Origin: an uncultured archaeon | GTDB lineage: Archaea; Thermoproteota; Nitrososphaeria; Nitrososphaerales; Gagatemarchaeaceae | Assembly (NCBI GenBank): GCA_963799775.1 | Contig: CAWCYD010000003.1 | Location: forward strand, 480,001-544,000 | Length of the DNA stretch: 64,000 nt | Direction of reading: 5' to 3' | Part shown: in pieces, positions 2,348-19,015 of the stretch | Numbering within the stretch: position 1 is the stretch's first letter | Layout: the number at the start of each line of letters is the position of its first letter | The notes under the pieces: generated by a model | Told to the model about the DNA's origin: nothing | Seen by the model: only the letters and a program-made list of their open reading frames with translations | Database searches by the model: none | Position numbers and translations under genes: made by a program

Positions 2348-3001
2348 ATGGCGACCACAAGGCGACCAAGACAGGACATCAAGGCAGACTCGAGGCTAGT
2401 CGAGCAGCTTGACGGCCTGAAGGAGGAGCTCGGGACGAGCTCCCGGACTTCGACGATTAGGAGGCTAGTCGTGCACTACAAGGAGAGCTCAAAGTCGAGG
2501 GAAGGCCTGCCAGTAGCCACGGCGTCGATTATGACAGATGACCGACCGGCTCTCATCACTGGATCGAGTGGAGCAGGAAAGACCACTACGATCAAGGCCC
2601 TCCTCGATGGTTGGGCCGGGCCTGTTTTCGCTTTGGACGTAAAGGGCGTCGACTATGTCGACTTCGAGAAACTCGACCTGGGAAAGGTCTCATCCTACGA
2701 GTGGGCCTCAGTGGATGGGCCTACAAGATTGCGCTTCACCCCCACCACGGAGCTCTCCGCGCAGGGGGAGTCAGAGGCGATCCTGCAGCTCCTGGCGCTG
2801 ATTCTTCACCAGGATGGGCACCCTTTGAAATCATGGGTGCTGATTCTGGAAGAGGGGCAAAGGTTCGCGAAGAACTCCAACTTCAAAGAAATCCTCTCGG
2901 AGGGACGCGTGTTCTGCAGGAAGATCCTCATCGCCTCCCAACTCTCAAGGCCGTTTCGAGAGCTGGTACCAGTGTACGTGCCTCCCCCGAGGCCTGTCTA
3001 G
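2348..3001 (+). CDS. Small FtsK/HerA-like P-loop ATPase with N-terminal ribbon-helix-helix-like segment
   Basis: Walker A GSSGAGKT, Walker B LILEEGQ, GR...IASQ motif; N-terminus DIKADSRLVEQLDGLKEELGTSSRTSTIRRLV. Confidence 0.7.
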   Translation: MATTRRPRQDIKADSRLVEQLDGLKEELGTSSRTSTIRRLVVHYKESSKSREGLPVATASIMTDDRPALITGSSGAGKTTTIKALLDGWAGPVFALDVKGVDYVDFEKLDLGKVSSYEWASVDGPTRLRFTPTTELSAQGESEAILQLLALILHQDGHPLKSWVLILEEGQRFAKNSNFKEILSEGRVFCRKILIASQLSRPFRELVPVYVPPPRPV

Positions 3002-3357
3002 GTCAGCAGGAAGTGCGCTTTTAGCAGCGTCTTCACTTCGGCAAGTTCTGTTGGGTTGAGACAACCAAACTTCTCCTTGATAAATCGGCCGTCCATCACT
3101 GTTACCTGAAAGACCAAGGCCACGGAGTCCTTGTCTAACCCGTTGACTGAGTGCTTTTTGATGGTGACAGTGAGAGGGAATCTTCTGGACTCAATGGTTT
3201 TAGTGAGCGGAATCACTGTAGCCATGTTCATCCCTGGGACCTTCGCAACTATGATCGCGGGTCGCTCTCCCGCCTGTTCGTGACCATCTCCTGAGAACTC
3301 TGCAAGCACTATATCCCCTATCGCGAAGCTGCCGACGTTGGGAGTCAGCGCTGGCAT
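2998..3357 (-). CDS. mazF: PemK/MazF family toxin
   Basis: GDIVLAEF..GHEQAGERPAIIV, VIPLT, NGLDKDSVAL motifs. Confidence 0.9.
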   Translation of the reverse strand: MPALTPNVGSFAIGDIVLAEFSGDGHEQAGERPAIIVAKVPGMNMATVIPLTKTIESRRFPLTVTIKKHSVNGLDKDSVALVFQVTVMDGRFIKEKFGCLNPTELAEVKTLLKAHFLLT

Positions 3358-3375
3358 TTTGTGTAACCGAGCTCT

Positions 3376-3912
3376 TTAGGCGGGTTGAGAGAGTATCGAG
3401 GCGGAACCGAGTCTCGTCCACGCAGAAAGCTCGTTCTTCAACTCGGGGGTGACATATTGCTCCTTGAACATCAGCTTCTTGGCGTCGTTCATGGATATGG
3501 TCAACTGCTCCTCGGAGAAGTTCTCCTTCCACAGCCTGAGTTTCTCCCTGATCCCTAACTCGTCCATCTTTGGATATGCATCGTACATCAGATAGACTGC
3601 ACTCGCAGCTCCTTCGAGCCTCGAGACCTCGATTGGCACACTCTCCTTGACGTGATTGAGGATTCTCTTCTGGGCTGCTGTGGGCTTCGGACTTTGGAGT
3701 GCCTGATATTCATCCCGATATATCCACATCTCCTTGTCGAGGTTCATGGAGTACGGGCCGCGACTGCGCCTCTCGAACTTGAAGTTGATTCCGAACCCCA
3801 GTTTCTTCAGGAGGTAGGTTATCTTCTGGATTACTATCCTGTCGTCTTGGCTGTCGATATTCGGTGCGAATCTCAGATACCCAAGTGCAGTGAGGATTTC
3901 GTCAGTTGCCAA
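3376..3912 (-). CDS. YwgA/Panacea(SocA)-like protein, probable antitoxin
   Basis: IQKITYLL and RGPYS motifs; directly upstream of mazF. Confidence 0.65.
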   Translation of the reverse strand: MATDEILTALGYLRFAPNIDSQDDRIVIQKITYLLKKLGFGINFKFERRSRGPYSMNLDKEMWIYRDEYQALQSPKPTAAQKRILNHVKESVPIEVSRLEGAASAVYLMYDAYPKMDELGIREKLRLWKENFSEEQLTISMNDAKKLMFKEQYVTPELKNELSAWTRLGSASILSQPA

Positions 3913-4510
3913 AGTAATCTTCCACGACTTCCAGCTTTTTGTATGGTTTTTACCGTATTAAGACTTTGTGAAGAAGGTGCCTCAGGTCCGGGGTTCAAAT
4001 GGTTAGGTTTTCGCCCCGAGCCCCTGGACGCCTCCTGGCTAACCTTAATACAGAATTCCCCGCACAAGGTGAGGAATGAGCAAGGAGGACTAAATTTACT
4101 ACTGTTCGAATCGTTGGTCCCCCCGAGGACGGATAGCCTGATTTCATGACTCAAGTTCGATTCTAACTGCTTGAGTTCAGATTTCCTATAAAGACCTCCG
4201 AATGACGTATAAATTGGGGAGAGCGGCGACAAAGCCGTGCCCGCCCTACGAATTCCTTGCGACGCGAGAAGAATGTCCAGGGCCTGCGAGAATGCCATTC
4301 ACGAAATCCCCGTCAGCATCGGGAATGGATCGGTTCAACAATGGGATGCCACTGCGGCGGAGATCTCGTTCTGGAGACATCTCACCAACGATCAACAGAA
4401 TGCTCTAGTTCAAAGCCAATACCAAGGGTGCTTCCTGTGCAACCTCGACTCGATGATGCCTTGAGCTGGCCTCTACAAGACTAAATAACGCGGCTGGCCG
4501 GAAACCACCG

Positions 4511-5152
4511 TTGGCGGCTCAGCAGGAACTTCTTCTCGTCGAAGTTGTCGCGGACAAGGACACTTGCACTTCGATTGAGAACGCGCTACAGAACTCGCAG
4601 TTCTTTCATTCCATCGAATCCCGCGAACCCTTGAAGTTTAGAGTGATCGCTCATCCAGTGGTTCTCGCAATGCTTCTCACTTTCCTTGAAACAAGGGCGG
4701 CAGCGATTTCTGGCAAGATTACGATGAACGATGGGACAGTCTATCAGCTGGACGCCTACGGGATGGATGAACTCAAGAAGGCGACAGCCAGAAAACTAGG
4801 GGCGACGCCATCAGCGACTCCCTCATCTCCTGGCCCTCAGACCGGTCCAAACGTCGTTGATCTATTCATGGCCGCCCTGAGCAATCCAGAGGCGACAGGG
4901 AAACTCGTGAAGGAAATCGCGAGTGCTTTGCGGGGAGATCCGGCAGTCGCGCTTGAGGAAACCAAGCAAATCTCCCGCTTCACGTTAGCGATCATGAGCC
5001 TAATGGCCGCCGTGATTATTGGGGCCTCAGTCCTGGGCTACTTTGGAAAGATCGGCGGCGACACCGTCGGCATAGTCTACGGGACAGTGATAGGCAGCTC
5101 CTTCGCGTTTCTCTACAAGTACCTTGGCGCACCTGAGGAAGGCCAATCCTAG
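4511..5152 (+). CDS. Hypothetical protein with two C-terminal TM helices
   Basis: Hydrophobic FTLAIMSLMAAVIIGASVLGYFG and VGIVYGTVIGSSFAFLY segments. Confidence 0.7.
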   Translation: MAAQQELLLVEVVADKDTCTSIENALQNSQFFHSIESREPLKFRVIAHPVVLAMLLTFLETRAAAISGKITMNDGTVYQLDAYGMDELKKATARKLGATPSATPSSPGPQTGPNVVDLFMAALSNPEATGKLVKEIASALRGDPAVALEETKQISRFTLAIMSLMAAVIIGASVLGYFGKIGGDTVGIVYGTVIGSSFAFLYKYLGAPEEGQS

Positions 5153-5157
5153 CAAAG

Positions 5158-6138
5158 TCAGGAGGCAGGCAGGGCCCGGCCGATACGTCGCTCATCGAGC
5201 TGGTACACTCCGTAGATGTCACCAAACAACGTATCACGATATTGCCAAGTGTTTGGAAGGGTCAAGGTCACGAAGAATTTCTGTCGAGTCACATGATGCA
5301 AATTGGAATACACGGCACGTCCTACTAGCACCTGATTCTTTTTTGCAATGCCGCAGATCTTGGCGGCGACGTTCATGGTGTAGCCTAGCAGATCTCTCGA
5401 ATTCTTGATGTCCTTCGACCCCAGCTCGACTATCTGGTTCTCGCCGCAATCGACACCAATTCTAAAGCCGATTTCCGGATAGCCTTGCTCGACCAGGGCC
5501 GGGATCAAGACCTCTCGCATGAACATCCAAGCGACGATAGCGCAGTCGCCTGCATTGTCAATCATTCCGGGGAAGTTCCTCTCGGCCGGGAAATACCCGA
5601 TTAATCCATCACCGGTGTACTTCAAGACATAACCTCTGTAGCCGTTTATCAGGAGAGTTATCTCGTGTGATAGGACTGTCACGATCTTGTTCATCTTTTC
5701 AGCACCTAGAGTTCTGCTCATCTCTGTCGAACCAACCAAATCGATGTAGAGAACAGCGAAGACCATCGTCTTGTCCTTGTTGAGCTCCAGGAAGTTCTCG
5801 GAAAGGTCGATTCCCCTCTCGATCTTTAATTCCTCTGACAGAAGTTGCTTGACTCTCGGCTTGGCTTCCTGAAAATACGCCGTAAGATCTTTGATGGTGG
5901 GTGGAGATTGTACGATTGGAACCTCCATTGAGCGCATCCACCCCTCGATCAATTCTTCTTCGAGTAGGACAATCTTGCTGCCCTTGTCACGCCAGGCCTT
6001 CTTGCCGTCCAAGTCAAACTGCTCGTATCTGGTCGGGTCGAGTTCGATTTCAAACCTCAACAGTCCCTTCTCTTTGTCTATGACCTCGACGTTCTTGATT
6101 TGAAGGTCGATTCGAAAGGGGCCCTTGCCGATTGGCAA
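5158..6138 (-). CDS. Class III adenylate/guanylate cyclase domain protein
   Basis: LYIDLVGST, KYTGDG, RIGVDCG, DLLGYTMNVAAK motifs. Confidence 0.9.
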   Translation of the reverse strand: MPIGKGPFRIDLQIKNVEVIDKEKGLLRFEIELDPTRYEQFDLDGKKAWRDKGSKIVLLEEELIEGWMRSMEVPIVQSPPTIKDLTAYFQEAKPRVKQLLSEELKIERGIDLSENFLELNKDKTMVFAVLYIDLVGSTEMSRTLGAEKMNKIVTVLSHEITLLINGYRGYVLKYTGDGLIGYFPAERNFPGMIDNAGDCAIVAWMFMREVLIPALVEQGYPEIGFRIGVDCGENQIVELGSKDIKNSRDLLGYTMNVAAKICGIAKKNQVLVGRAVYSNLHHVTRQKFFVTLTLPNTWQYRDTLFGDIYGVYQLDERRIGRALPAS

Positions 6139-6355
6139 CAGCTCTCATGAGATAGGGCTGATATTGAACTTTCAAATCCACAGGATTAATGACAGCGTGG
6201 ACAACCCGAAAACAGCCTAATCATGGACAAACAGAGATAGCGAGAGCGCCTTCAGAACAACGGGGGCGGAAGCTGGTTGTCCATGGCAAAACGCGCCGAA
6301 ATTGACCCATAATTGGCACAGGTTTTTAGACTCGTCTCGTCTTCTCTATTCCGCA

Positions 6356-6649
6356 ATGACGGGAAAAGTGAGCGAGAAAGAAATCATGGACAACGAATTT
6401 CAGCAGTGTCCATTCTGCGACAGACTCTTCGAGAAGTCCTACCGGATTGCGGTGACCACGGAGCTAGAGGAGCACATCAGAACACAGCACGGGAGGGTGA
6501 AGGTATGGCGGGGTCGAAACGTGCGGTGGTGCCCCGCCTCCGAAGTAAGAAAGAAAATGGCCAGGGCGCCCGACAGCGCCCAAGGCCCAGCAGAAGGTCA
6601 ACCGTTCAGGGCGGCCGATCCTTCACATGGCAAAAGCGAGCGAAGTTAG
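6356..6649 (+). CDS. C2H2 zinc-finger protein
   Basis: CPFC...EEHIRTQH. Confidence 0.7.
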   Translation: MTGKVSEKEIMDNEFQQCPFCDRLFEKSYRIAVTTELEEHIRTQHGRVKVWRGRNVRWCPASEVRKKMARAPDSAQGPAEGQPFRAADPSHGKSERS

Positions 6650-6890
6650 AGAAACGTCTTCGGAGCGTGACGAGCTCCGCGTTCGCAGGCCCTGGCCTCG
6701 CGTGCAGATAGAACTCGACGCGCACAATCAACCCTATCTCGCGCGATATCTCCACACCGAGACCGCCAAGCCGGCAGAACTCAGCGACGAAGTGCTGAGA
6801 CTCGCCAACGCATTGATGTGCCTTCGGCTCCCCAAGAGTCCGGCGAAGCGCCCAGAGGAGAGTAGCCCAGAGGAGAGTAGCCGCCCATGA
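6627..6890 (+). CDS. Hypothetical protein
   Basis: Overlapping operon-like ORF; contains a 15-bp tandem duplication (PEESS x2). Confidence 0.5.
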   Translation: MAKASEVRETSSERDELRVRRPWPRVQIELDAHNQPYLARYLHTETAKPAELSDEVLRLANALMCLRLPKSPAKRPEESSPEESSRP

Positions 6891-7084
6891 AAGGCAGAAT
6901 CTGCTTCGAAGCTGAAGCGGGCGACGTCGTAGAAGTAATGCGCCAAGGAAACGAGCTCGTTCCAGTACGCCATGAGGACTTGAAAGAGATGCGGGAACTC
7001 GCTGGCAAATACGAGACTCTGCGACAACTTCTCGGCCGGGATCCGCTCGAAACTTACCAGAAGAGGAAGTGGAGGGAGGTCTAG
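6887..7084 (+). CDS. Hypothetical protein
   Basis: ATGA overlap with the upstream ORF; directly before Rep. Confidence 0.55.
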   Translation: MKGRICFEAEAGDVVEVMRQGNELVPVRHEDLKEMRELAGKYETLRQLLGRDPLETYQKRKWREV

Positions 7085-7087
7085 CGC

Positions 7088-8863
7088 TTGACCGATGAGC
7101 CTGAGTCCAAGGCCGTGGAGCTGATTAGTATTGCAGAGGCCAGCTGCAGTTTCTTCACTGACCAGCACGGGACTCCGTACGCTTTTCGAAATAATCCTGG
7201 GCACGTCTCCGCGCTGAAGTCAAGGGAGTTCAAAGTTTGGCTAGTGGGGGAGTTCTACAAGAGGCATGAGGAGGCTGTCGGCAGCGACGCGATCTCCGCA
7301 GCGGTCAATGTGTTGGAAGCCAAGGCCAACGAATCAGCGCGCGTGACGCTGTCTACCAGGTGCGGCATGGATGGACCGAGAAGACTCCTGATCGACCTAG
7401 CCAGCAAAGACGAGCAGACGGTGGTCATTGACGCGGGTGGGCTCAGAATCGAATCCCTCGCTGAACCGAAGTTTCGAAGATACTCTCACATGGTCCCGAT
7501 GGAGGTCGCGGCGGACGCGGCTGACCTGAAAGAGTACGCGAAGTTCTGGAGGTTCAAGGATCCGGCCGATGACGTTTTGCTTGTGGGATTCATCGGTCAC
7601 GCCTTTGTAAGTGAGATTCCTCACGCAATCCTGGTCCTCATCGGTTCTAAGGGGAGCACGAAGACCACTGCGACAAGGGCGACGCGGCAGATTATCGACC
7701 CCAGCTCGGTCGCCGATCTCACGATTGGAGAGAAGGGCAAGGAGTTTGTTCAGCAGCTCGCGCACAACTACGTCCCCCTCTTCGACAACGTTTCGAAGCT
7801 GCAGCCCTGGCAGGCCGACGACCTCTGTAGAGCTTCGACCGGAGCAGGATTCTCCAAGCGCGAGCTCTACAGCGACGAAGACGATGTAATCTTCATGTTC
7901 AAGCGGGTCGTCATTGTCAACGGAATCAACACGCCGACCCAGAGGCCAGACTTCCTGGATCGAAGCATCCTAATTGAGTGTGCCAGGGTTCCGAGGGGAG
8001 AACGCCTCGAGGACAGCCAAGTCCAGGCGAAAATCTCGGAATGGATCCCTCGCCTCCGCAGGTCAATCTTCGAGGCCCTAGCAACAGCTACGCAGCTGAT
8101 TGACCAGGTCCGCGGAGAGCTGAAAGAGCTGCCCAGGATGGCGGACTTCGCGATATGGGGTGAGGCCTTCTGCAGGGCGTCCGGATACGCCCCTCTCGAG
8201 TTCTACAATCGCCTCATGGAGAAGGTCGACGAGACCAGCACTATAGCCCTCGAGAATGACGTGATCGCCGAGCTTCTCTTCAAACTCTTCGACGATCCGA
8301 AGAGTCTGACATACGGTTCCAAAGAGTTCGAGTGCACATCTAGTGAACTCCTCAAGACCCTTGTTGCCCTCAACGAGGAGCTGAAGTATGTAGGTCCGAA
8401 GGAACTTCCATCCTCACCGGATTCATTGGGTCGGCGCCTTGGGGAGCTCGCAGCCGACCTGGAGGAGGTGGGAATCAGGATCAGGCGTAACAGGTCCAGA
8501 AGGAAGCGCTCATACATCATCAGCAGGGTCTCCCCCAGAGGTAGCGAAGAAGCGTCACACGTGTCACTAGTGTCACCCACGGTGGGCCCAAACGGGGGCC
8601 AAAATGACACTTCTGTGACACGTGACGCTTCAAAACAGACTCCGATTGAAACCCCAGTGACACATGACGCTAGTGACACATGTTCGCTACCTCTAGGGGG
8701 GCAGGGGTTAGCAGCGAAGTCCAAGGCCAGCATTCCCCATTTCTTCTGCTCAGTCTGTGGCAAGGAGATAGGGACGGGCCTTGAGCTCAGCATCTACAAG
8801 ATAGGGAAGGAAAGGTTCTGCAAGGCCTGCTACCTCGAGAAGAAAGGGGAGGCCTCGGCATGA
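7088..8863 (+). CDS. Replication helicase-like P-loop ATPase (SF3-like) with C-terminal wHTH and Zn finger
   Basis: LVLIGSKGSTKT, LFDNVS, TG.GFSKRELYSD, NGI...RPDFLDRS; terminal CSVC...CKAC. Confidence 0.8.
   Translation: MTDEPESKAVELISIAEASCSFFTDQHGTPYAFRNNPGHVSALKSREFKVWLVGEFYKRHEEAVGSDAISAAVNVLEAKANESARVTLSTRCGMDGPRRLLIDLASKDEQTVVIDAGGLRIESLAEPKFRRYSHMVPMEVAADAADLKEYAKFWRFKDPADDVLLVGFIGHAFVSEIPHAILVLIGSKGSTKTTATRATRQIIDPSSVADLTIGEKGKEFVQQLAHNYVPLFDNVSKLQPWQADDLCRASTGAGFSKRELYSDEDDVIFMFKRVVIVNGINTPTQRPDFLDRSILIECARVPRGERLEDSQVQAKISEWIPRLRRSIFEALATATQLIDQVRGELKELPRMADFAIWGEAFCRASGYAPLEFYNRLMEKVDETSTIALENDVIAELLFKLFDDPKSLTYGSKEFECTSSELLKTLVALNEELKYVGPKELPSSPDSLGRRLGELAADLEEVGIRIRRNRSRRKRSYIISRVSPRGSEEASHVSLVSPTVGPNGGQNDTSVTRDASKQTPIETPVTHDASDTCSLPLGGQGLAAKSKASIPHFFCSVCGKEIGTGLELSIYKIGKERFCKACYLEKKGEASA
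8549..8680. repeat. TGAC(A/G)C iteron-like array, candidate element origin
   Basis: Three G(C/T)GTCA copies at 9-bp period (8552, 8561, 8570) face six TGAC(A/G)C copies (8605-8674); 10-bp perfect IR GAAGCGTCAC/GTGACGCTTC. Confidence 0.65.
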
Positions 8864-9051
8864 GCCTAACGAGTCCTCGAGCTGAGATCTACTACTGCGA
8901 AGGGTGCGGGTCGCCCAGTGAACCGGTAAGGTGCCTACGGAACATTCCACGAAGGGTCGTCGTCCTCGAGGCTTCGGCCAGGACGTACGGAGTCATTTGG
9001 AGCTTCTTCTGCCGCAGGTGCGAGGCGCGAGAGAGGAGCCGCAGATCATGA
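8860..9051 (+). CDS. Small Zn-binding protein
   Basis: CEGC...CRRC; ATGA overlaps on both sides. Confidence 0.55.
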   Translation: MSLTSPRAEIYYCEGCGSPSEPVRCLRNIPRRVVVLEASARTYGVIWSFFCRRCEARERSRRS

Positions 9052-9533
9052 CCGCCCAGGAATCCGTGCCGAACGCCGGTCGGTATCTTTGCCCAAAGTG
9101 CTCGGAGGTGCCCTTGAGCTCGTCCTAGAAACCGGCGAGCTTGTCTGTCCTCAGTGCGGCATTGCGTTCGAAGACCCTGGCGCGAAGATCCTGAGGTTCG
9201 TCCCAGAGGGGAGCTCGATCAACTCGCCCGGAATGGTCCACGGGCTTGGAACGGACCAGCGCGAGCTGATTCGCCAATTCCATGCGTTAGGGATGAAGAA
9301 CGGAGGCGCTGAGAGGCCGGACGGCTACATGCTCTCCATAAATGGACCTTTGGAGCGGCCACAGCGACGATTCATTTTGGATTTCCATCACGCAGAAGCT
9401 CAAGGACAGAGGAATGAGCCCCGAGAGGATTGCCCTTGTCAGCGCGGTGCTTAGGAAGGAGATCGCTCACATGAACGCCCAGAAGACCGCAGAGTTGCAA
9501 ACCTTGCTCCGACAGATGGGGATTGACCCTTGA
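9048..9533 (+). CDS. TFIIB-type Zn-ribbon protein (two frameshifts)
   Basis: CPKC...ETGELVCPQCG after joining frames; ends ...RQMGIDP. Confidence 0.6.
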
Positions 9534-10281
9534 TTCAGGAGATCTCTCTCGCTGATAGACCCGAACCCGTTTCAGTCGCGGGAGCCAGACGAGGGAGACG
9601 AGCTCCGTTCTGTGAAGGAGCTAGGCATGCTCAGAGTCGCCCTGATTGTCAGGCCGAGCTCCGTTGCTCAAGGACGTTTCCAACTGGCATTCGGACACAG
9701 GACCATCCAGACCCTCAGGAAACTAGGTCGAATCTACGTCCCCTGTGAAGTCCGATCCTTGAGCGACCGTGAGATGGCCAAGATGCTCCACGTCGAAAAC
9801 GAAGACAGGAGGGGACTCAGCGACGCAGAGCGAGGCCGATTCTATCAGCACTACATGAAGGACTTTGGCCTGTCAACCAGGGAGCTCGAGCGAGAGCTCG
9901 GCGTCGACCAAGGCAGCATCGTCAGGTGCGTCGGGATTGCCGACACCGCAAAGGCGATGGAAGGCTCCATCAGCGAGCCTCTTTCACGAGCGTTCGAGTA
10001 CGCCGTCACGGAGATCAAGTACAAGGAAGCCTCGAAGCTGAAGGACGAGGCGAAGAAGGTTCAGGTCCCTCGCCCAAGTTGCGGAGCATGACCTGAGTAG
10101 CGATCTGACGAAACTGCTGGTCGCAAAGGCCCAAGCAGGGATGACCGTGGCCGAGGCGGCGGCTGAGGTGGTAAACCTCAGGGAGGCCCGGAAATCCGAA
10201 TCGTACGCAGAGAGGAGAAGGCGGGTCGAGTGTCCCACGTGCAAGGGAGCCGGATTCATTTTGAGGGATGAGAAGGCTTGA
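9530..10281 (+). CDS. ParB/Spo0J-domain protein (frameshifted)
   Basis: SVKELGML..LIVRP..FQLAFGHR..ENEDRRGLS..HTH; C-terminal CPTCKG. Confidence 0.8.
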
Positions 10282-10323
10282 GCGAGCAGGACTACGTCAG
10301 GGTGCCGAGGTCCGAGCTCGCCG

Positions 10324-11565
10324 CTATTCTTTCTGACCTCGAGCGCCTGAGGAAGCTGGTTGAGAAGACTCAAGAGAAGCAATCCTCTTCTGAAGGCTCA
10401 CGATGAGCTCCATCATGGGCTTCAGCTCCTTGTCCTTCTCGTCCCTAGCTATCGCCTCGTTGAAATCAAGTGAGACGTGCGGCTCGATCCTGAGATAGGC
10501 CTGTCTCAGGTCTTCGGGATGGACCTGGTCTCTGTCGTCGTAGACGGCCGCGATCCCTCCTTCGTGCCCCATCATCTCCTCGACGAAAGCGGACTTCACC
10601 CCGCAGTGCTCGGCTTCGGTCTTGAAGCTGTGTCGCAGCATGTGGCTCCTCCAGCTCGAGGGTTCTCCGTTCTCGACCATCCCCTGGGCGTGCATCCTCA
10701 AGGCGATCTTCCTCATTTGCTGATTGAGCCACTTTGGGTCGACTCCGGAGCCCTGTAGCTTGCCGGCAAATACCAGGTCAGAGGGCAGGGGTTCTCGCGC
10801 CATTTCCTCCGCCCATCGCTGCCGGAGGAGCCTCAAGTGCTCGATAGAGTCGCGCCCGAGGAACGTGTACCATGGTTTCTTGTGATTCTTCCTTCCCAAG
10901 AACGAGAGCTTCAGTGGATGATCCGCCCTGCGAAGGCCCTCGTCGATGTCCTTCCAACGCAACCCGAGGATCCTGTTGACCTCGCAGCTCGACTGCCAAA
11001 CTAGAAGCAGCGGCGTCCGTATCTGCAGGGGGAGGGCCTTCAGCACCTTGCGGATGTCCTCCGAGCTCAGGGGCTTGTCTCGCGGCTCCCCGTCCGACTC
11101 CGCTATCCTCACCTCCCCGAACAAAGGGCTGTCGTTCCGCTCGTACCACTTCTTGACCGTCGACGCCGCCCCCGCCCTGTAGCTCATCGCGTACCCCTCG
11201 AGCTCCTTGTTGACGAAGGTCTCGAGCCATTCCCGGTGCTTCCTCTTCTGCGCGACGTCCTCCGCCTCCGACCGGTAGATGCACCTCAGATTGTCCGTGA
11301 TGAGCTCGTCGGGCGCCAGGTTCGTCGTCCCCGACCCCTTGAGCCACCTGAAGTACAGCAGGAGGTGGAGCGAATACACGGATTGCACCCTCACCTTCCC
11401 GTAGGAGCTGAGGAATCGCTTCACCGCCTCGCTTGGCCCTATCTTCCTTAGGTTGTTCTCGAGAGCTTTCTGGGCTCTCCGGATGACGGTCGGAGTGCTC
11501 CGACCCGCCTCGATTGCCGTTGCTTGCATGTTCCTATCAGTAAAAGCCTTCTTGGTTGTGGACAT
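10324..11565 (-). CDS. Tyrosine recombinase/integrase
   Basis: HMLRHSFKT, MMGH...Y, GLRWKDI. Confidence 0.9.
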   Translation of the reverse strand: MSTTKKAFTDRNMQATAIEAGRSTPTVIRRAQKALENNLRKIGPSEAVKRFLSSYGKVRVQSVYSLHLLLYFRWLKGSGTTNLAPDELITDNLRCIYRSEAEDVAQKRKHREWLETFVNKELEGYAMSYRAGAASTVKKWYERNDSPLFGEVRIAESDGEPRDKPLSSEDIRKVLKALPLQIRTPLLLVWQSSCEVNRILGLRWKDIDEGLRRADHPLKLSFLGRKNHKKPWYTFLGRDSIEHLRLLRQRWAEEMAREPLPSDLVFAGKLQGSGVDPKWLNQQMRKIALRMHAQGMVENGEPSSWRSHMLRHSFKTEAEHCGVKSAFVEEMMGHEGGIAAVYDDRDQVHPEDLRQAYLRIEPHVSLDFNEAIARDEKDKELKPMMELIVSLQKRIASLESSQPASSGARGQKE

Positions 11566-13311: not shown

Positions 13312-14616
13312 ATGTTGGGGGCTGGGAGACGTTCGCTTCTTGGGAGATCCCCTGCGGCGACGCTCGCGTTCTTGGTCGTCCTGATGGTCCTCGCAGTCTT
13401 CGCCCCAAGGGTCCATGCGGCAAGCGAGAACTCGAGCGTCCTCGTCGTCAACTTCGACGTCCCCGTCGACCCTGGTTCCTCCACCATGATGGCAGCGGCG
13501 GTCGCCACGGCCAAGTCCACAAACGCCTCGGCCATCGTCATCGAGATGAACACGCCCGGCGGCTACCTCAGCGACATGCTCGGCATCGTGTCGAGCATCC
13601 AGCAGGCGAACCAGTCCGGCATCCCCACCTACACCTACGTCCCTCCCGACGCCCTCGCCGCGTCGGCGGGCAGCTACATCGCCATGGCGAGCAACGGGAT
13701 CTTGATGGGTCCGGGCTCGGAGATCGGGCCGTCCACCCCGATAGTCGAGGGGGGCACCGCGCTGGAGCAGAACCACACGGAGGACGCGATGATCTCGCTG
13801 ATGGTCAGCCTCGCCGACATGTGGGGGCGGAACTCGACAGCCGCCCAGGCCATGGTGGTCTCGGACATCGCGTACTCTGCCGCACAGGCGTATCAATACC
13901 ACCTGACCGAGGGGAACGCCACCACCCTCCAGGGCGCGCTCTCGCAGTTCGGGCTCGGCCCCAGCTACACCGTCGTCCAAGAGGGCGTCTACGACCAGTT
14001 CCTCAGCGCGCTCAGCGACCCCAACCTCTACGGCATCCTGATACTCCTCGGGGCCTTCGCCATCGTCCTCGACCTCTGGCACCCGACGTTCGTCCTCTCG
14101 ATCGCGGGCGCCATCGCCCTGGTCGCGGGCCTGGTCGGAGCCGAGGTCGTTGGCTCCTCGTTGCTGGGCCTGGTCGTCATCTTCACGGGCGTTGGGCTCA
14201 TGTTCCTGGAGCTCAGGCTCGGGCACGGGTTCGCCATGATGGGCGGCGCCGTCGTCGGGGCTGTGGGCGTCTACCTCCTCTTCCAGGGGGTCCAGTACTC
14301 CTCCTCAACTATCATCGACTATACCCAGGTGGAGGCGGTCGTCTTGGGAGCCGTCGGAGTTTTAGGGGGGCTCTACATCAGGTGGGTAGTGGGGCCGTTG
14401 AGACACAGGCGGAACTTGACCGGTTCGGAGTCGCTGGTAGGGAAGCGCGGCGTCGCAATCTCGCCCACTGAGGTCAGGGTCGACGGCGTAATCTGGCGCG
14501 CGCGGATCGACTCGGGCGAGCTCAAGAAGGGGACCCAGGTGGAGGTGAAGGCGGTCGAAGCCCTGGTCCTCCGCGTGGTTCCGGTCGAAGAGAACCGCGC
14601 GCTCGATGCGCTCTAG
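13312..14616 (+). CDS. nfeD: NfeD membrane serine protease
   Basis: NTPGG, AASAGSYI, IGPSTPI, TM region, C-terminal OB (VDGVIWRA). Confidence 0.9.
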   Translation: MLGAGRRSLLGRSPAATLAFLVVLMVLAVFAPRVHAASENSSVLVVNFDVPVDPGSSTMMAAAVATAKSTNASAIVIEMNTPGGYLSDMLGIVSSIQQANQSGIPTYTYVPPDALAASAGSYIAMASNGILMGPGSEIGPSTPIVEGGTALEQNHTEDAMISLMVSLADMWGRNSTAAQAMVVSDIAYSAAQAYQYHLTEGNATTLQGALSQFGLGPSYTVVQEGVYDQFLSALSDPNLYGILILLGAFAIVLDLWHPTFVLSIAGAIALVAGLVGAEVVGSSLLGLVVIFTGVGLMFLELRLGHGFAMMGGAVVGAVGVYLLFQGVQYSSSTIIDYTQVEAVVLGAVGVLGGLYIRWVVGPLRHRRNLTGSESLVGKRGVAISPTEVRVDGVIWRARIDSGELKKGTQVEVKAVEALVLRVVPVEENRALDAL

Positions 14617-14695: not shown

Positions 14696-15541
14696 TTGGT
14701 GGATGTAGCTTCGCTCGCCGTAGAGGTTCTCGCTGTCCTCATCGTCTTGGGGATCCTCCTGAGCGGGGTTCGCGTGCTCCGCGAGTGGGAGAGGGCGCCG
14801 ATCCTGAGCCTCGGCAGGTACAAGGGCCTCAGGGGTCCTGGCATCATCTACGTCGTGCCGTTCATCAACAGGGTTCCTTTCGTCATATCGACCCGTCTCC
14901 AGACGGTTTCCTTCAAGACGGAGCAGACCTTCACGAAGGACAACGTCCCCGTCGTGGTCGACTCCGTGATGTACTTCCAGCCCGCTGACCTGCAAAAGGT
15001 GGTCCTTGGAGCTGAGAACTATATGGTCGCGACCCAGCTCGCGGCCCAGACCACCCTCAGAGAGGTGATAGGTCAGGTGAGCTTCGACGACCTCCTCACC
15101 GAGCGCGAGAAGATTGGGGCCAAGGCGCGAGAGGTGATAGACAGCAAGACGGAGGTGTGGGGCGTGAAGGTCACGGCCGTAGAGATAAGGGACGTCGGGA
15201 TTCCTTCCGCGCTGCAGGACGCGATGTCTAGGAACGCCCAGGCGGAGAGGGAGAGGAGGGCGAGGGTGACTCTCGCGCTCGCCGAGTTCGAGGCAGCTCA
15301 GAAGATGGTGGACGCCGCGAACCTCTACGCGAACAACGACAGGGCCTTCCAACTGAGGTGGATGAACATCATCTACGAGCTGGGACTGCAGGGAAAGAAC
15401 ACGATCCTTCTCATCCCGTCAAACATCCCCATTGCAGGGACGGTTGCAGGGACGACCGGTGGGTCGACTATCGCGCCCGTGGGCGTGCTGGGCATCCAAG
15501 AGCTGGCGAAGAAGGCACAGGCCGCTTCGGACGATAAGTAG
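14696..15541 (+). CDS. Slipin/stomatin (SPFH, band 7)
   Basis: TKDNVPVVVD, AQTTLR, QAERERRA; paired with nfeD. Confidence 0.95.
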   Translation: MVDVASLAVEVLAVLIVLGILLSGVRVLREWERAPILSLGRYKGLRGPGIIYVVPFINRVPFVISTRLQTVSFKTEQTFTKDNVPVVVDSVMYFQPADLQKVVLGAENYMVATQLAAQTTLREVIGQVSFDDLLTEREKIGAKAREVIDSKTEVWGVKVTAVEIRDVGIPSALQDAMSRNAQAERERRARVTLALAEFEAAQKMVDAANLYANNDRAFQLRWMNIIYELGLQGKNTILLIPSNIPIAGTVAGTTGGSTIAPVGVLGIQELAKKAQAASDDK

Positions 15542-15570: not shown

Positions 15571-15612
15571 TCACGCCTTCGACTGGACGCGCTTCTGCAC
15601 CGAGTACATCTC
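15571..15612 (-). repeat. Displaced copy A of ligase 3' end (EMYSVQKRVQSKA*), probable original end
   Basis: GAG ATG TAC TCG GTG CAG AAG CGC GTC CAG TCG AAG GCG TGA; host-like GC-ending codons; about 30 bp from the convergent slipin stop. Confidence 0.9.
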
Positions 15613-15715
15613 TAGTATTGCAGAGAAGGCCGAGAGCAATCATGGCCGAGGCGGTTTCAGTAGCACCGTTACGGCGGTTTTCTCTATCAAGCTCTAAGCT
15701 TTAGGAGCATACTTG

Positions 15716-16288
15716 CTAGCTCGACAGAGTGAGAATCGTCTGAGAAGAGTATCCGCCGATGTATAGATCAAGAGTGTACTCGCCCGCCGTGATGAGAACG
15801 CCGTTTGATGTGGTAACAGCGTCCCAAGAGGTGTTCCATGAATACGACTCCCCTCGGCCTAGCGAAACCTGCGAAAGTGGGGAAATCTGCTGGTGGAAGA
15901 CAACGCTCCCTTGCTCGTTCGTGATTGTCATGTTAGAGAAGGATACCTGTGCGCGAGAAGTTGAATTGTCGTTCACGAGAATCCCCTCGAAACTCACAAC
16001 GCTGCCCACCTTCGCCACCTCTGAAAAGCACGTGATTAGAGTCAGACCTGCGGCAAAAGTGCTGGACTCGTTTTGCCCCGACGGACACGTCGGCAACCCC
16101 GTCGCCGAACCCACAGTCGCTGAAACTGTAATCGCACTGCTCGTTGCTCTAGCAGCCGAGGCACCCGTTGAGGTAGAAGCTAATGGCGTCGTTGTAAGGG
16201 ACCCTGTCGTTGTCACATCACTACCACCGCTGCCCGAAAGATTGGATAGGACGAGCACGCCAGTAGTCACAATCAGGGCAACCACCAC
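15716..16288 (-). CDS. Membrane-anchored Ser/Thr-rich protein with BsuPI/Ig-like C-terminal domain (start uncertain)
   Basis: N-terminal TM, S/T linker, LGRGESYSWNTSWD...AGEYTL. Confidence 0.6.
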   Translation of the reverse strand: MVVALIVTTGVLVLSNLSGSGGSDVTTTGSLTTTPLASTSTGASAARATSSAITVSATVGSATGLPTCPSGQNESSTFAAGLTLITCFSEVAKVGSVVSFEGILVNDNSTSRAQVSFSNMTITNEQGSVVFHQQISPLSQVSLGRGESYSWNTSWDAVTTSNGVLITAGEYTLDLYIGGYSSQTILTLSS

Positions 16289-16391
16289 AACAATGACAAT
16301 CTTGTTCAGGGTTAATCACACGCGCACCATTCTTGCGGTAGAGCCTGTGGTTGAATTGGGGAATCCTTCGGGATAAAGTCTTCGGACTTTC

Positions 16392-16436
16392 CTACTGTTG
16401 TTTGGATTGGACTCGTTTTTGTAGACCGTACATCTC
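16392..16436 (-). repeat. Ligase 3' end copy B (EMYGLQKRVQSKQQ*)
   Basis: GAG ATG TAC GGT CTA CAA AAA CGA GTC CAA TCC AAA CAA CAG TAG. Confidence 0.9.
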
Positions 16437-16464
16437 TAGCAATGCGTTCGACTGGCGGTTGATT

Positions 16465-16677
16465 CTACTTTTCCATCTTGTCTTTTGCCAAAAAGCTCCA
16501 AGACAGCAAGATTAATCCGAAAACAAGAAAAATCAAACCGGAATAAAGATAACCGTAATCATGAATGGGACCAGTGCAACGCCCCTGACAGAAAATCTCG
16601 TAGGGGTAGCCCACAATCATAATGTAAATTCCAAATAATGAAAGCAGAAGGCCGATGACTAACAATGATATTCTCAA
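16465..16677 (-). CDS. Small two-TM protein with Cys-pair loop (cargo)
   Basis: Two hydrophobic helices around CQGRC. Confidence 0.7.
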   Translation of the reverse strand: MRISLLVIGLLLSLFGIYIMIVGYPYEIFCQGRCTGPIHDYGYLYSGLIFLVFGLILLSWSFLAKDKMEK

Positions 16678-16699
16678 GATTGGCTACCTCTCGACTGTT

Positions 16700-16786
16700 C
16701 TACTCTTTGCTAGCGTTCTGAATAAGTGCTATCCACCTGTTCAAGGATTCCGGGCAGGCTATCTTCGGTCCTCAGGGCACGCTCAT
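16700..16786 (-). pseudogene. Internally deleted DDE transposase remnant
   Basis: In-frame MSVP*GPKIACPESL-NRWIALIQNASKE*; WxxLIQNA resembles the C-terminus of archaeal IS6-like DDE transposases. Confidence 0.55.
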
Positions 16787-16827
16787 TGTTGTTTTGATTG
16801 GACGCGTTTCTGTAAACAATACATCTC
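16783..16827 (-). repeat. Ligase 3' end copy C (EMYCLQKRVQSKQQ*)
   Basis: GAG ATG TAT TGT TTA CAG AAA CGC GTC CAA TCA AAA CAA CAA TGA. Confidence 0.9.
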
Positions 16828-16865
16828 TCCCTGATTCTTATGGCTGTAACATATCGGCGGAAGTC

Positions 16866-17102
16866 TCAGGGTTTTCGCCCTAACTGGACATTCTCGTCTA
16901 TAGTGAGTTCGTGTTCGTAGTCGGCATCTTCGTATCTTATCATTTGGCCTCCAACGGCAAGAATTGCACCCTGTTTGAACTGCATTCTCCTCCTGATGAC
17001 TTGTGGCTCAAGCACTTCGATCTCTGCCGGATGCTCTGCTAGGAACAGTGTCCATCCCTCGCCGAGATACTGGCCGACTTTGTGCAATGTGAGATACGTC
17101 AT
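16866..17102 (-). CDS. Hypothetical protein or gene fragment (cargo)
   Basis: 78-aa ORF; frame stays open upstream past one TGA, so it may be a remnant. Confidence 0.45.
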   Translation of the reverse strand: MTYLTLHKVGQYLGEGWTLFLAEHPAEIEVLEPQVIRRRMQFKQGAILAVGGQMIRYEDADYEHELTIDENVQLGRKP

Positions 17103-17245
17103 TCATTGCGACCGAGGATACTCAATCCAATTTGGGTCAAGCACGAGTTCCGTGAAGCTGATGAAAGTAGTCGCGCGACCCTGCATGAAGTTAAGCAATT
17201 GCGGATTGATTTAGCCTTGGTGGCCGGCTTAATCATGCGCCGGAT

Positions 17246-19015
17246 TCACTTTTGTTTTGATTGGACGCGTTTTTGTAATCCATACATCTCGACCAGCTCC
17301 TTCACGGTCGTCGCGTCTTCCGGCCCCTTCTCGTCGCGTATCTTGCCCGTGAACTTCGGGAACCTCAGGGCGAGGCCGCTCCCCTCCCTCATCTTGTTCA
17401 TCGCCGCCGGGTGGACGGGGGAGAGGGTTATCTCCGAGGCGATCGTCTCTATCACGACCTTGGGCCTGTACCAGACGTCCGGCACCAGCTTTGATTCCAC
17501 GTTCGGCGGTCTGACCAGGCTCTCGTAAGGCTTCAGCAGCTTTGGGAACCTCTCCAAGTCCGCGTCTGAGAAGCCGGTCCCTATCTTCGTGACGCTCGGG
17601 AACGTCTTCTTCTCCGAGTCGTACGCGGCGAGCAGGTAGGCACCGTAGACTCCCGCCCTCCTCCCCCTGCCGTGGAAGGCACCGATTATCGCCAAGTCTA
17701 TCGTGTCGGTGAGCTCGCTGCTGTACTCGCGCTTCAGCTTGATCCAGCCGAACTCCCTGGCCCCGGCCCGGTATGTCCCGTCGGGCTTCTTCGCCATTAT
17801 GCCCTCGCAGCCCTCGGTGATCGCAAGCTCCATGAACTTCTCCATCTCGTCGGCGGTCTCCACCATCTTCGACGGCACGGGACGCGTGAACTCCGTCACC
17901 TCGACTATCCTCTGGAGCTCCGCCCTCCGCTTCAGGTATGGGAGCGACGTGATGTCCTTCCCGTCCACGTAGAGGGCGTCGAAGAAGTTGACGGCGACGG
18001 GGTACTTCTTCATGGCCTCCTCGATGCCGTGCTTCCTCCTCCTGTGCATGAGCTCTTGAAACGGAAGGTACTCGTTGGTGTCCGGGTTGATCGCGACCAC
18101 CTCGCCTTCGAGCACGGCGCGCTTCGACTTTACGTGGTCTCTTACGAAGCGGACGACGTCCGGGTAGTTGGCGGTGATCCTCTCGAGCCTCCTTGAGAAG
18201 ACGTCGACCTTCTCCCCGTCCTTGTGCATCTGGAGCCGCTCCCCGTCCAGCTTGTACTCGACGGCCACAGGCTTGCCTATCTGGTCGAGTATCGCCTGGG
18301 CCGAAGGCAGCCTCTCGGCGAGCATGGGCCTTATCGGCTTGCCGACCTCCAGGTGGATCTTCTCGACCCCTGCCAGGCCCTCCCCTGCCGCGACCTCCAC
18401 CACGTATCCGAGGTCGGAGGTGACGTTGTACGCCCTCTCGAGCGCCTTCCTGTTTGTCTTGCCCCCGAGGTGGGCGACGGCCACAGCGTCCAGGATGGTG
18501 TAGTCCGCGACCCCGAGCCGAAGGACGCCCATCGCGGTCCTGAGGATGTACTTCGCCTCGAGCGGCGTCGCGTCGTTCAGCAGGCTCACTAGCTCTCTGA
18601 GCTTCGACTCCACCGAGCCGCCGCCGCTCGTCTTCGCTATCTTGAGCAAGGACTCGTAGACCCTTCTGAGCGTGAGCGGCTCCGCGACGAGGGGCCCCTG
18701 CCTCGCGCCGCCGCCGGAGGAGAGCAACGCCTGTCCCGCGCTACCGATGTCACCGGCCTTGATGTACGCCTCTCTCACCTTCTCAGGAGACTTTCCTGAA
18801 GCGGTCGAAAGGGCCCGGAGCGCGAACTTCTCGGCGATGCCTAGCTCTATGCCCTCGTAGTCCGGACGGAGCTTCCCCTGCATGAGGTACACGAGGGTCG
18901 GGAGCTCGGCCTTGGGGGTCTCCTTGAAGAGAGAGGCAAGGATATCGGTCATCTCCAGCCTTCCCTGCGTGCCCTCCAGCTTCTCGAAGTATTCTGCGAC
19001 GAGCGAGTACTTCAT
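17246..19015 (-). CDS. lig: ATP-dependent DNA ligase
   Basis: EYKLDGER, EGIMAK, WIKLKREY, LRFPKF; last codons (copy D, 17246-17290) switch to AT-rich usage. Confidence 0.97.
   Translation of the reverse strand: MKYSLVAEYFEKLEGTQGRLEMTDILASLFKETPKAELPTLVYLMQGKLRPDYEGIELGIAEKFALRALSTASGKSPEKVREAYIKAGDIGSAGQALLSSGGGARQGPLVAEPLTLRRVYESLLKIAKTSGGGSVESKLRELVSLLNDATPLEAKYILRTAMGVLRLGVADYTILDAVAVAHLGGKTNRKALERAYNVTSDLGYVVEVAAGEGLAGVEKIHLEVGKPIRPMLAERLPSAQAILDQIGKPVAVEYKLDGERLQMHKDGEKVDVFSRRLERITANYPDVVRFVRDHVKSKRAVLEGEVVAINPDTNEYLPFQELMHRRRKHGIEEAMKKYPVAVNFFDALYVDGKDITSLPYLKRRAELQRIVEVTEFTRPVPSKMVETADEMEKFMELAITEGCEGIMAKKPDGTYRAGAREFGWIKLKREYSSELTDTIDLAIIGAFHGRGRRAGVYGAYLLAAYDSEKKTFPSVTKIGTGFSDADLERFPKLLKPYESLVRPPNVESKLVPDVWYRPKVVIETIASEITLSPVHPAAMNKMREGSGLALRFPKFTGKIRDEKGPEDATTVKELVEMYGLQKRVQSKQK

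Follow-up and report, generated by a model that had tools for sequence, protein, structure and literature searches.

Why should the gene for an essential enzyme be followed by further copies of its own 3' end, with small genes in between? The question is raised by the window, the whole 64,000-nucleotide stretch of DNA from an uncultured soil archaeon of the Gagatemarchaeaceae that was analysed here; the genome that carries it is called G000. The ATP-dependent DNA ligase gene in the window (lig, 17246..19015, minus strand) encodes 589 aa and was identified from the ORF list and from Pfam matches to DNA_ligase_A_N (E 8e-41), DNA_ligase_A_M (E 7e-58) and DNA_ligase_A_C (E 3e-16). Its last 14 codons are of a foreign type, here called the cassette type, and this replaced tail (residues 576-589) falls after the C domain, whose end is placed by Pfam at residue 563. 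The tail in use (tail A, 17246..17290, minus strand) is the true end of the ligase ORF, EMYGLQKRVQSKQK before the stop codon, and joins the body of the gene at GAGATGTA, a core of 8 bp encoding E-M-Y. Sequence comparison revealed two displaced cassette-type tails on the same strand, tail B (16783..16827, EMYCLQKRVQSKQQ before the stop) and tail C (16392..16436, EMYGLQKRVQSKQQ before the stop). The displaced native ligase tail (tail D, 15571..15612, minus strand, EMYSVQKRVQSKA before the stop) has GC-rich codons and matches the in-use tails (EMYSMQKRVQSKA before the stop) of the empty-site relatives G011, G006 and G018. The tails lie 824, 391 and 463 bp apart from start to start, and in all four copies the homology is bounded by GAGATGTA at one side and by the stop codon at the other.

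An earlier, sequence-only reading of the window had described four tail copies that all begin with GAGATGTA and differ mostly at synonymous sites, the distal one being a GC-rich host-type tail beside the slipin stop, and this description was confirmed. Over 13 codons, tails A and C showed five synonymous and no non-synonymous differences, and tails A and D six synonymous and three non-synonymous ones. Each of the four copies matched a degenerate tail consensus at 29/29 informative positions. The cassette-type copies are 64-73% identical to the native tail at the DNA level, and the recoding between the foreign and the native type is concentrated in the 10 bases directly after the junction. In six frames of the G000 assembly (2.47 Mb, 81.67% complete) no further copy of the tail peptide was found. 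GC content was 0.43-0.49 over 16200-17200, compared with flanks of 0.60-0.67. On its far side, the insertion site is bounded by a convergent slipin gene (SPFH/Band 7; 14696..15541, plus strand; Pfam Band_7 E 2e-33), the stop of which (15541) lies 30 bp from tail D, and the synteny of nfeD-slipin facing lig was kept in 9/9 relatives compared. Because the tail copies are not identical to one another and independent assemblies show this architecture too, an assembly artefact is unlikely.

Each of the three inserts between the tails was found to carry one small gene co-oriented with lig and no recombinase, in agreement with the sequence-only reading. Cassette 1 (16828..17245, minus strand, 418 bp, GC 0.50) holds a 78-aa ORF (16866-17102) and, upstream of it in frame, a 31-aa ORF (17103-17198). 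Together, these two ORFs correspond to a 108-aa ORF of a relative, which in the window is broken by one TGA, and at least some of the cargo is therefore decaying. The cassette 1 ORF had no Pfam match; a homologue with 60% identity is located in G021, within an integrase-bearing island. Cassette 2 (16437..16782, minus strand, 346 bp, GC 0.44) encodes a hydrophobic protein of 70 aa (16465-16677), for which all Pfam matches were sub-threshold. Cassette 3 (15613..16391, minus strand, 779 bp, GC 0.53) contains a 190-aa ORF (15716-16288) with a hydrophobic N-terminal segment and a Ser/Thr-rich region. It had no Pfam match, and its homologue in G013 (32% identity) sits inside the tail array of another gene.

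The corresponding lig 3' regions were compared in a clade of nine genomes with ligases at least 78% identical. In five of them (G011, G006, G018, G008 and G019) the site is empty: the native tail stands alone, and the lig and slipin stops are ~20-70 bp apart. The site is occupied in the other four (G000, G017, G020 and G022). All metagenome contigs with a cassette-type tail (9/9) represented occupied lig sites. Eight complete arrays and two partial contigs were obtained, with one to three cassettes of unrelated content per array and unit sizes of 0.35-2.3 kb; the empty sites and variable cassette numbers that the sequence-only reading had suggested looking for in relatives are thus both present. 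When the cassettes were compared all-against-all just one was shared, which leaves 13 distinct cassettes, and the distal tail was native in 8/8 complete arrays. In a ligase tree built without the tails, occupied and empty alleles were interleaved (e.g., G018_empty with M46_occ, support 84/88). At more distant ligase loci of the genus and order (L008-L030, flanks up to 1.5 kb), a second tail was not seen by the tail pattern, whose matches on the same strand never exceeded one per locus and were absent from 11/23; the diverged tails of many lineages there do not conform to this pattern.

The position of the junctions was highly constant. Across the 8 arrays, unrelated cassette ends meet the 13 distinct displaced tails at GAGATGTA, and variants of this core were confined to its first 2-3 bases (CGG-, GGA-) or to generally decayed tails. 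Repeated insertion at one short site, as proposed from the window, is accordingly supported by 13 distinct junctions that all fall within 3 nt of GAGATGTA. The base preceding the core was A in 10/13 cassette-side junctions, and C, T or G at the in-use ligase junctions. Such constancy bears on the idea that the inserts were captured by homology from diverged relatives, through one in-gene crossover and an illegitimate join, with selection keeping the ligase whole. Several other G000 genes also show duplicated 3' ends, 40-150 nt in length, on either side of small modules that lack mobility genes, which suggests a process independent of one target sequence. At lig, however, the foreign-type sequence comprises just 37 nt and starts exactly at the duplication boundary, leaving no homology anchor; moreover, the boundary is identical in 13 distinct junctions, and an identity of 64-73% is too low for homologous exchange across a 40-nt stretch. 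We consider capture by homology highly improbable. Around a 594-aa membrane-protein gene in relatives, no arrays were found within flanks of 1.0-1.5 kb (6 loci). A transposon or casposon was also rejected, as there are no terminal inverted repeats bracketing any insert, and the variable core bases (CGG-, GGA-) favour a crossover over a duplicated target.

The tail sites themselves are conserved at the codon level, and no inverted arms were detected beyond an invariant TGTA-N5-TRCA. The 10 bases right of the core, with their strong difference between native and cassette type, are atypical for the core-binding arms of a tyrosine recombinase. Xer-dependent modules (IMEX, pdif) use a dif-like site made of two ~11-bp inverted arms around a short spacer; in the lig tail, TGTA-N5-TRCA is the one symmetric part. 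The sequence-only reading had called the array integron-like. Like integrons, lig arrays are ordered stacks of small, mostly single-gene, recombinase-less cassettes, each ending in a recombination site, and the cargo is of an adaptive kind in both (toxin-antitoxin, surface and secreted proteins). Integrons have been reported in Archaea too (10.1101/2022.02.06.479319). The likeness did not extend to the machinery: no IntI lies beside the array, and the sites are conserved coding sequence instead of folded attC hairpins, with no attC-like fold in 21 tails (RNAalifold, -1.04 kcal/mol, 4 invariant pairs without covariation). An Rfam search returned one sub-threshold, snoRNA-like match (E 0.2). The docking site also differs from attI in lying inside an essential gene, and cargo orientation is mixed, with 9/14 genes over all arrays co-oriented with lig and 5/14 opposite (3/3 co-oriented in G000). 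Expression of the cargo from the lig transcript, as put forward in the sequence-only reading, is with 5/14 genes in opposite orientation supported at most in part.

To find a mobility enzyme or a free element, the arrays, the genomes and sequence collections were searched. No cassette of the arrays contains an integrase or nuclease gene, and no fragment of an integrase or backbone gene was found in the 13 distinct cassettes. G000 encodes five tyrosine recombinases (PF00589), all outside the array, and no serine recombinase (PF00239) in its 81.67% complete assembly. With these five integrases and four LAGLIDADG proteins as tblastn queries, no match was obtained in 51 ligase loci. The nearest of the five, an integrase 4 kb off (10324-11565), was rejected as the enzyme: it belongs to a separate island, for which no att repeat was found within the window, and a homologue was present in 1/5 relatives tested, on another contig. 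A Zn-ribbon integrase family occurs in 3/4 occupied and 1/5 empty genomes of the clade, which, in genomes that are few, related and incomplete, is a lead only. Free or full-length elements with the tail, for which the sequence-only reading had suggested a search, did not turn up in any collection searched: viral contigs gave no matches to the tail, and all matches in the genome collection (4/4) and in metagenomes (9/9) were at lig. Low-depth contigs from one DNA sample, placed as seven short pieces, showed neither joints nor loose ends, a result that bears on neither circles nor excision. Second ligase-like copies in G017 and G021 were discarded as a source of the cassette-type tail, since their own tails are different.

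Could a homing endonuclease have built the arrays? It would cut the native tail near GAGATGTA, and repair would copy in a resistant, recoded tail together with cargo, the nuclease gene being lost or located elsewhere. The architecture is that of mitochondrial genes in Glomus and Allomyces (atp6, atp9, cox2 and nad3): the C-terminus brought by the insert shares 64-81% DNA identity and 94-100% protein identity with its counterpart in the related species G. irregulare 494, and the original C-terminus lies unused further downstream (PMC3630166). At lig, too, the inserted C-terminus is diverged in DNA and conserved in protein and the native one displaced, and the recoding focused after the junction is what immunity to cutting predicts. 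Furthermore, tail duplications at a radical SAM gene of the same genus are associated with LAGLIDADG endonuclease genes; the islands at this hotspot in G017, G015, G014 and G007 contain double-motif LAGLIDADG genes or fragments of them, so these organisms do have a nuclease-and-repair route. The two hotspots differ in their boundaries, which are scattered at the radical SAM gene (query residues 11 to 111 of 132) and fixed at lig, and the former fits the fungal mobile-ORF model better than the ligase arrays do. The mobile ORFs described in fungi are single and carry their own LAGLIDADG or GIY-YIG gene (PMC3630166), whereas the lig arrays are stacked and nuclease-less. No nuclease Pfam domain was found among the cassette ORFs, and tblastn of the ligase arrays with the four LAGLIDADG proteins gave only E values above 0.03. 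Successive cassette-type tails differ at few synonymous sites, which would confer no immunity, yet two or three of them are stacked. Homing, finally, copies an existing arrangement and would not repeatedly join new cargo at the same nucleotide. On this evidence, we judge a homing origin of the lig arrays to be quite improbable.

The cargo across the arrays includes an ice-binding protein, an isochorismatase, HicAB, a lectin-like protein and small membrane proteins. Cassettes are mostly single-gene, with one to three cargo genes per unit. The Pfam matches of the isochorismatase (profile positions 1-174/175), Ice_binding (1-208/208) and HTH_45 (1-75/77) genes span essentially whole profiles; further matches were to HicA/HicB, Laminin_G_3 and DUF6114. 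Turnover was evident at both proximal and distal positions of the arrays. The hosts L034 and L049, with host flanks 97.9% and 95.6% identical, have one cassette in common (cassette X, 91.5%). Proximal to it, L049 has ~1.35 kb extra compared with L034, and the cassettes distal to it (2287 bp versus 1158 bp) are unrelated. Within the first L049 cassette, no tail remnant above background was detected at the boundary between W and X. As the neighbours of cassette X differ on both sides in near-identical hosts, recombination must also occur at internal tails. The proposal that the newest insert is proximal is therefore incomplete, given the difference in the distal cassette between L034 and L049.

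These observations are also relevant to whether the cassettes are inert scars, i.e., whether full-length integrative elements (virus, plasmid or ICE-like) entered serially, lost their integrase and backbone, and left att-flanked, CIME-like remnants that are immobile now. Integration, decay to an att-flanked element and accretion of the next is the standard account of streptococcal tandem islands, in which the gene targeted at its 3' end stays whole, elements that lack integration genes still have their two att sites, and newcomers join at the same site (PMC5704250). For close relatives this account expects an empty site, as found in five of the nine clade genomes. One streptococcal example of accretion reportedly targets fda. 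Streptococcal CIME islands consist of decayed ICE sequence several kb long, and for them a cognate, integrase-bearing ICE is known, whereas no cognate element was found for the lig cassettes, which are small units of whole single genes in an archaeal host, 13 of them distinct in 8 arrays. Decay is also suggested by cassette 1, with its stop-interrupted ORF homologous to a gene of the G021 integrase-bearing island, by the HicAB and IS element in G022, which are typical leftovers, and by the mosaic in-use tails of G017 and L046, which indicate ordinary exchange between repeats. However, 0/13 cassettes keep an integrase or backbone fragment although both flanking tails always survive, and the cargo genes with Pfam matches are full length, not truncated. 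In addition, no full-length element was seen in the 8 complete arrays, the 2 partial contigs or the three collections, and a distal cassette that differs between 96-98% identical hosts requires internal-tail recombination beyond decay. We regard purely inert scars as possible and rather unlikely.

Precedents for exchange of a gene end are known. Among integrative elements of the same phylum, 14/68 have this kind of target; there, too, an element can supply a replacement gene end with its own stop codon, and arrays arise by re-use of a site (PMC6563490). The elements described there carry integrases or are casposons, in contrast to the integrase-less lig cassettes (PMC6563490); DNA ligase is not known to be among their targets, nor are stacks of small integrase-less cassettes known among them. 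In Escherichia coli, the tail of an essential gene can likewise be exchanged by phages. Prophages e14 and 21 supply icd with an alternative, mainly synonymous 3' end; these are full prophages with integrase in a single insertion, unlike the stacked lig cassettes.

We hypothesize, with confidence that is evenly balanced, that the lig tail serves as a hotspot of site-specific recombination around an 8-bp core, where integrase-less cassettes accumulate through an activity supplied in trans. The hotspot would comprise the final 14 ligase codons, with the crossover inside GAGATGTA. An incoming unit, probably circular, would bring its own AT-richer ligase tail directly right of the core and, behind that tail, one to three cargo genes. 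After insertion the ligase would still be whole, now ending in the new tail, and the earlier tail would be pushed downstream, so that repeated insertions would stack the cassettes and the native tail would end up last. A tyrosine-type recombinase encoded elsewhere, by a visiting element or by the host, may move the units in trans, and the same enzyme may act at internal tails, by which cassettes would be gained, lost and swapped. A wider and more doubtful proposal, which we make tentatively, is that Group I.1c Thaumarchaeota possess an integron-like capture system without an adjacent integrase and with its site in coding sequence. Small circular cassettes would carry recoded ends of conserved genes, here the replicative ligase, and be served by a recombinase in trans, and the arrays, with turnover inside a species, would supply niche genes, among them that for an ice-binding protein in cold-soil populations.

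Even if the cassettes are scars, the 3' end of the DNA ligase gene is a new integration target for archaeal mobile elements, and the locus offers strain-level population genomics of the group a well-defined marker that changes fast. If they are moved in trans, the locus would be an archaeal gene-capture platform built on a principle different from that of integrons. Its docking site would be safeguarded against loss by forming the 3' end of an essential gene, and a functional ligase tail would be required of each cassette. Such a platform would explain how soil Thaumarchaeota swap ice-binding, lectin-like, toxin-antitoxin and membrane-protein genes among close strains.

The ATP-dependent DNA ligase of the window (589 aa, 17246-19015, minus strand) is encoded by an ORF in which Pfam recognises all three ligase domains. 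The most C-terminal of them stops at residue 563, which leaves the final 14 residues outside it. The gene is faced by the plus-strand genes nfeD (13312-14616) and slipin/Band 7 (14696-15541), and the 1.7 kb separating the ligase and slipin stops has a GC content of 0.43-0.49, compared with 0.60-0.67 in the flanks. A repeat finder returned a single family of four direct copies, spaced by 824, 391 and 463 bp. All are ligase tails in the ligase sense: tail A (EMYGLQKRVQSKQK) ends the ligase ORF, tails B (EMYCLQKRVQSKQQ) and C (EMYGLQKRVQSKQQ) are displaced copies, and tail D (EMYSVQKRVQSKA) is a displaced copy of the native type. Their homology spans from the 8-bp core GAGATGTA to the stop codon that closes each copy. 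Tails A and C differ by five synonymous and no non-synonymous codon changes over the 13 codons compared, and A and D by six synonymous and three non-synonymous changes. The repeat finder, the boundaries and the codon comparison bear out the four stacked tails proposed in the sequence-only reading. No further copy of the tail peptide was found in the six frames of the 2.47-Mb host assembly.

Three relatives of the same genus (G011, G006 and G018; ligase 80-85% identical) carry a native tail in GC-rich codons, EMYSMQKRVQSKA followed by the stop, and close variants of it are found in G019 and G008. Tail D is of the same type as these in-use tails. The ligase and slipin stops of all five genomes are ~20-70 bp apart, indicating an empty site. 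The ligases of G017, G020 and G022 have an EMYGLQKR... type end, with gaps to slipin of 1.0, 1.3 and 3.1 kb, respectively. Each gap closes, on the slipin side, with a native-type tail that has been displaced; that of G022 is still intact, whereas those of G017 and G020 have decayed. When the cassette-type tail was sought by exact pattern, four stretches matched in the genome collection, each at the ligase locus (G006, G017, G020, G022), together with nine metagenome contigs, all of them occupied ligase sites, and there was no match in the viral contig collection. The perm-lig/slipin-nfeD neighbourhood is common to the nine contigs where their length suffices. The counts given here and below rest on metagenome-assembled genomes (54-95% complete) and on related lineages. 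In a ligase tree built without the tails, empty and occupied alleles are intermixed (e.g., G018_empty with M46_occ, support 84/88), with 5 of the 11 inner forks being poorly supported.

The arrays were then read by a mismatch-tolerant scan, which revealed one to three cassettes (inserts between two tails) per array: three in the host genome, two each in G022 and the loci L045 and L049, and one each in L047, G017 and G020. At locus L046 (equal to L048 and L051), a single cassette follows a pair of tails 56 bp apart. The distal-most copy is the native tail in all eight complete arrays. All-against-all comparison of the inserts identified a single cassette in common, which leaves 13 distinct ones, the shortest measuring 346 bp and the longest 2287 bp. 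The two close tails of L046 (7384-7494, also in L048 and L051), measured start to start, leave only ~18 nt between them, which makes a nearly empty cassette. Furthermore, 0.7-0.8 kb separates the displaced native tail from slipin at L046:8630-9383 and L047:910-1623. These segments are ~71% identical, both with a PEMT/ICMT-like methyltransferase fragment. They represent a native gene or else an earlier insertion whose distal tail has been lost.

The same junction point was observed in 13 distinct displaced tails, joined to unrelated cassette ends. The core is intact in eight of them, two have other first two or three bases with the rest intact (CGGATGTA at the end of cassette X, the shared insert, and GGAATGTA in L046), and three are decayed overall. 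The base preceding the core is A in 10 of the 13 cassette-side junctions, and C, T or G in the in-use ligase junctions. The fixed junction together with the differing base before it indicates exchange inside the 8 bp, a length that matches the overlap region of tyrosine recombinases. Site-specific recombination at this core would stack cassettes at the ligase tail. Native and cassette-type tails are 64-73% identical and, judged from sequence comparison, the tail beyond the core plays no role in homology and is conserved as protein: 10 of 11 in-use cassette-type tails encode EMYGLQKRVQSKQ. Capture of the inserts facilitated by homology is regarded as very improbable. Of the five distinct cassette-type tails that are internal and displaced, four carry between one and three amino-acid differences, which fits a release from selection after displacement. 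The in-use tails of G017 (L032:15954) and L046 (7384) are mosaic: native-like codons interrupt an otherwise cassette-type sequence midway, which points to gene conversion over short patches between tails of the same array.

Cassette X is common to L034 (the G022 locus) and L049, two loci with ligases 97.9% identical over 2155 nt and slipin sides 95.6% identical over 1814 nt, and is itself 91.5% identical between them. Proximal to X, L049 has ~1.35 kb extra, including an ORF of 334 aa. Distal to X, the cassettes of the two loci are unrelated: according to Pfam, that of L034 encodes HicB, HicA and an IS whose DDE transposase is split, along with a 110-aa ORF, whereas that of L049 encodes a concanavalin-like lectin domain protein. 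Since the same X has different distal neighbours, addition next to the ligase alone is insufficient, and recombination occurred at internal tails too, or X entered twice. The earlier proposal that the newest insert is the proximal one therefore does not hold as a sole rule. Three features, namely the constant 8-bp junction, the stacked cassettes and the turnover seen at internal tails, speak for site-specific recombination.

Each cassette holds one to three ORFs, which occupy most of its length, and cargo with Pfam matches is complete. The isochorismatase of the G017 cassette covers profile positions 1-174 of 175, and the ice-binding-like protein of the metagenome contig L045 (8408-9439; PF11999, E 5e-77) covers 1-208 of 208, with a Ser/Thr-rich leader in front. 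The latter is plausibly a niche gene for cold soils. Pfam also assigned a winged-helix protein (L045) and a DUF6114 membrane protein (L047). In the window, the proteins encoded by the three cassettes measure 78 aa, 70 aa (hydrophobic) and 190 aa (N-terminal hydrophobic segment and Ser/Thr-rich), and none of them matched a Pfam family. A 31-aa ORF and the following 78-aa ORF jointly match a 108-aa ORF of G021 (60% identity), the window counterpart being split by one in-frame TGA; the G021 ORF sits in an island with a tyrosine integrase. No integrase or nuclease is encoded in any cassette, and five host integrases and four LAGLIDADG proteins used as tblastn queries gave nothing in 51 ligase loci. 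The cassettes could be scars of decayed elements, but their cargo genes are whole, backbone genes are absent from all 13, and no full-length element was found at the ligase-tail site in three collections. We consider scars doubtful on these grounds, which favour small units moved in trans. To the reading that the cassettes are site-specifically recombined units, small by nature and moved in trans, we give about an even chance. Such units would be moved by an enzyme and through an intermediate that we infer, and their genes would presumably be expressed.

A scan for displaced C-terminal peptides across the host genome identified the ligase array and three more loci. The gene of a 594-aa membrane protein (L059, C3:967157-971457) has two displaced tails at +573 and +2516, and these flank antitoxin/PIN-like modules, which are RHH/PIN- and AbrB/PIN-like pairs assigned by eye. 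A small module of two genes precedes the 29-aa displaced tail, at +1068, of a KaiC-like gene (L061, C1:4261-6105). No mobility genes were found in the modules of these two loci. The third is a radical-SAM gene of about 560-570 aa with a displaced C-terminal part (L060, C2:284446-290284; also L083 of G013, and L084-L088). Its 3' end is a hotspot throughout the genus, with five tail copies in G013 and islands of up to about 25 kb. Displaced 3' fragments occur in many genomes, and the position of their left ends varies widely, between residues 11 and 111 of the 132-aa query. The islands of G017, G015 and G014 code for double-motif LAGLIDADG proteins (about 395 aa), and that of G007 has a fragment of such a protein. 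Passages of PMC3630166 describe mobile endonuclease ORFs of fungal mitochondria that import a C-terminus of foreign origin and push the native copy downstream. The radical-SAM hotspot has the same architecture, so tail replacement by nuclease cutting and repair probably takes place in these organisms, which lends some weight to a homing-endonuclease origin of the ligase cassettes as well. In contrast to the hotspot, however, the ligase arrays have a fixed boundary, no nuclease and stacked near-identical tails, which would not protect from re-cutting, and we regard homing as unlikely here.

As to enzymes that could move the cassettes site-specifically, the host genome encodes five PF00589 proteins, and no serine recombinase was found in it. 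One, a tyrosine integrase of 413 aa (minus strand, 10324-11565), is encoded 4 kb away from the array on an island distinct from it; a homologue was found in only one of five relatives, on another contig. This lower-GC island (about 3000-11565) also encodes proteins of 591 aa (7088-8863) and 159 aa (9612-10091). It is probably an integrated element and may extend beyond the start of the window, inside which a search for flanking att repeats gave none. Two paralogous modules (C3:120904-122570 and C3:1384721-1386351) carry another two of the five, Zn-ribbon tyrosine integrases 70% identical to each other, each followed by a J-domain-like protein, with downstream genes in common, and look like a resident family of integrated elements. 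This integrase family is present in three of four occupied and one of five empty genomes of the clade, these genomes being few, related and incomplete. The G021 island with the homologue of the first cassette's ORF also encodes a homologue of the Zn-ribbon family, which we treat as a lead for the enzyme.

The sequence-only reading had called the array integron-like. By definition it is not an integron, as it has no adjacent integrase gene, and 21 ligase tails showed no attC-like fold (4 invariant pairs, -1.04 kcal/mol). No terminal inverted repeats were found around the inserts, and Rfam gave nothing meaningful. Parts of the literature describe related arrangements: integrons have been reported in Archaea (10.1101/2022.02.06.479319), islands flanked by att sites but devoid of an integrase are documented to accrete in streptococci (PMC5704250), and in Thaumarchaeota 14 of 68 elements integrate into 3' ends of protein genes and supply a new end (PMC6563490). 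DNA ligase is not named as a target in the passages of the latter that we consulted, and a literature search on ligase genes as attB sites in Archaea brought up only an unrelated review. The ligase array is a variation on these known arrangements: stacked mini-cassettes that lack a recombinase, inserted at the coding end of an essential gene in an archaeon.
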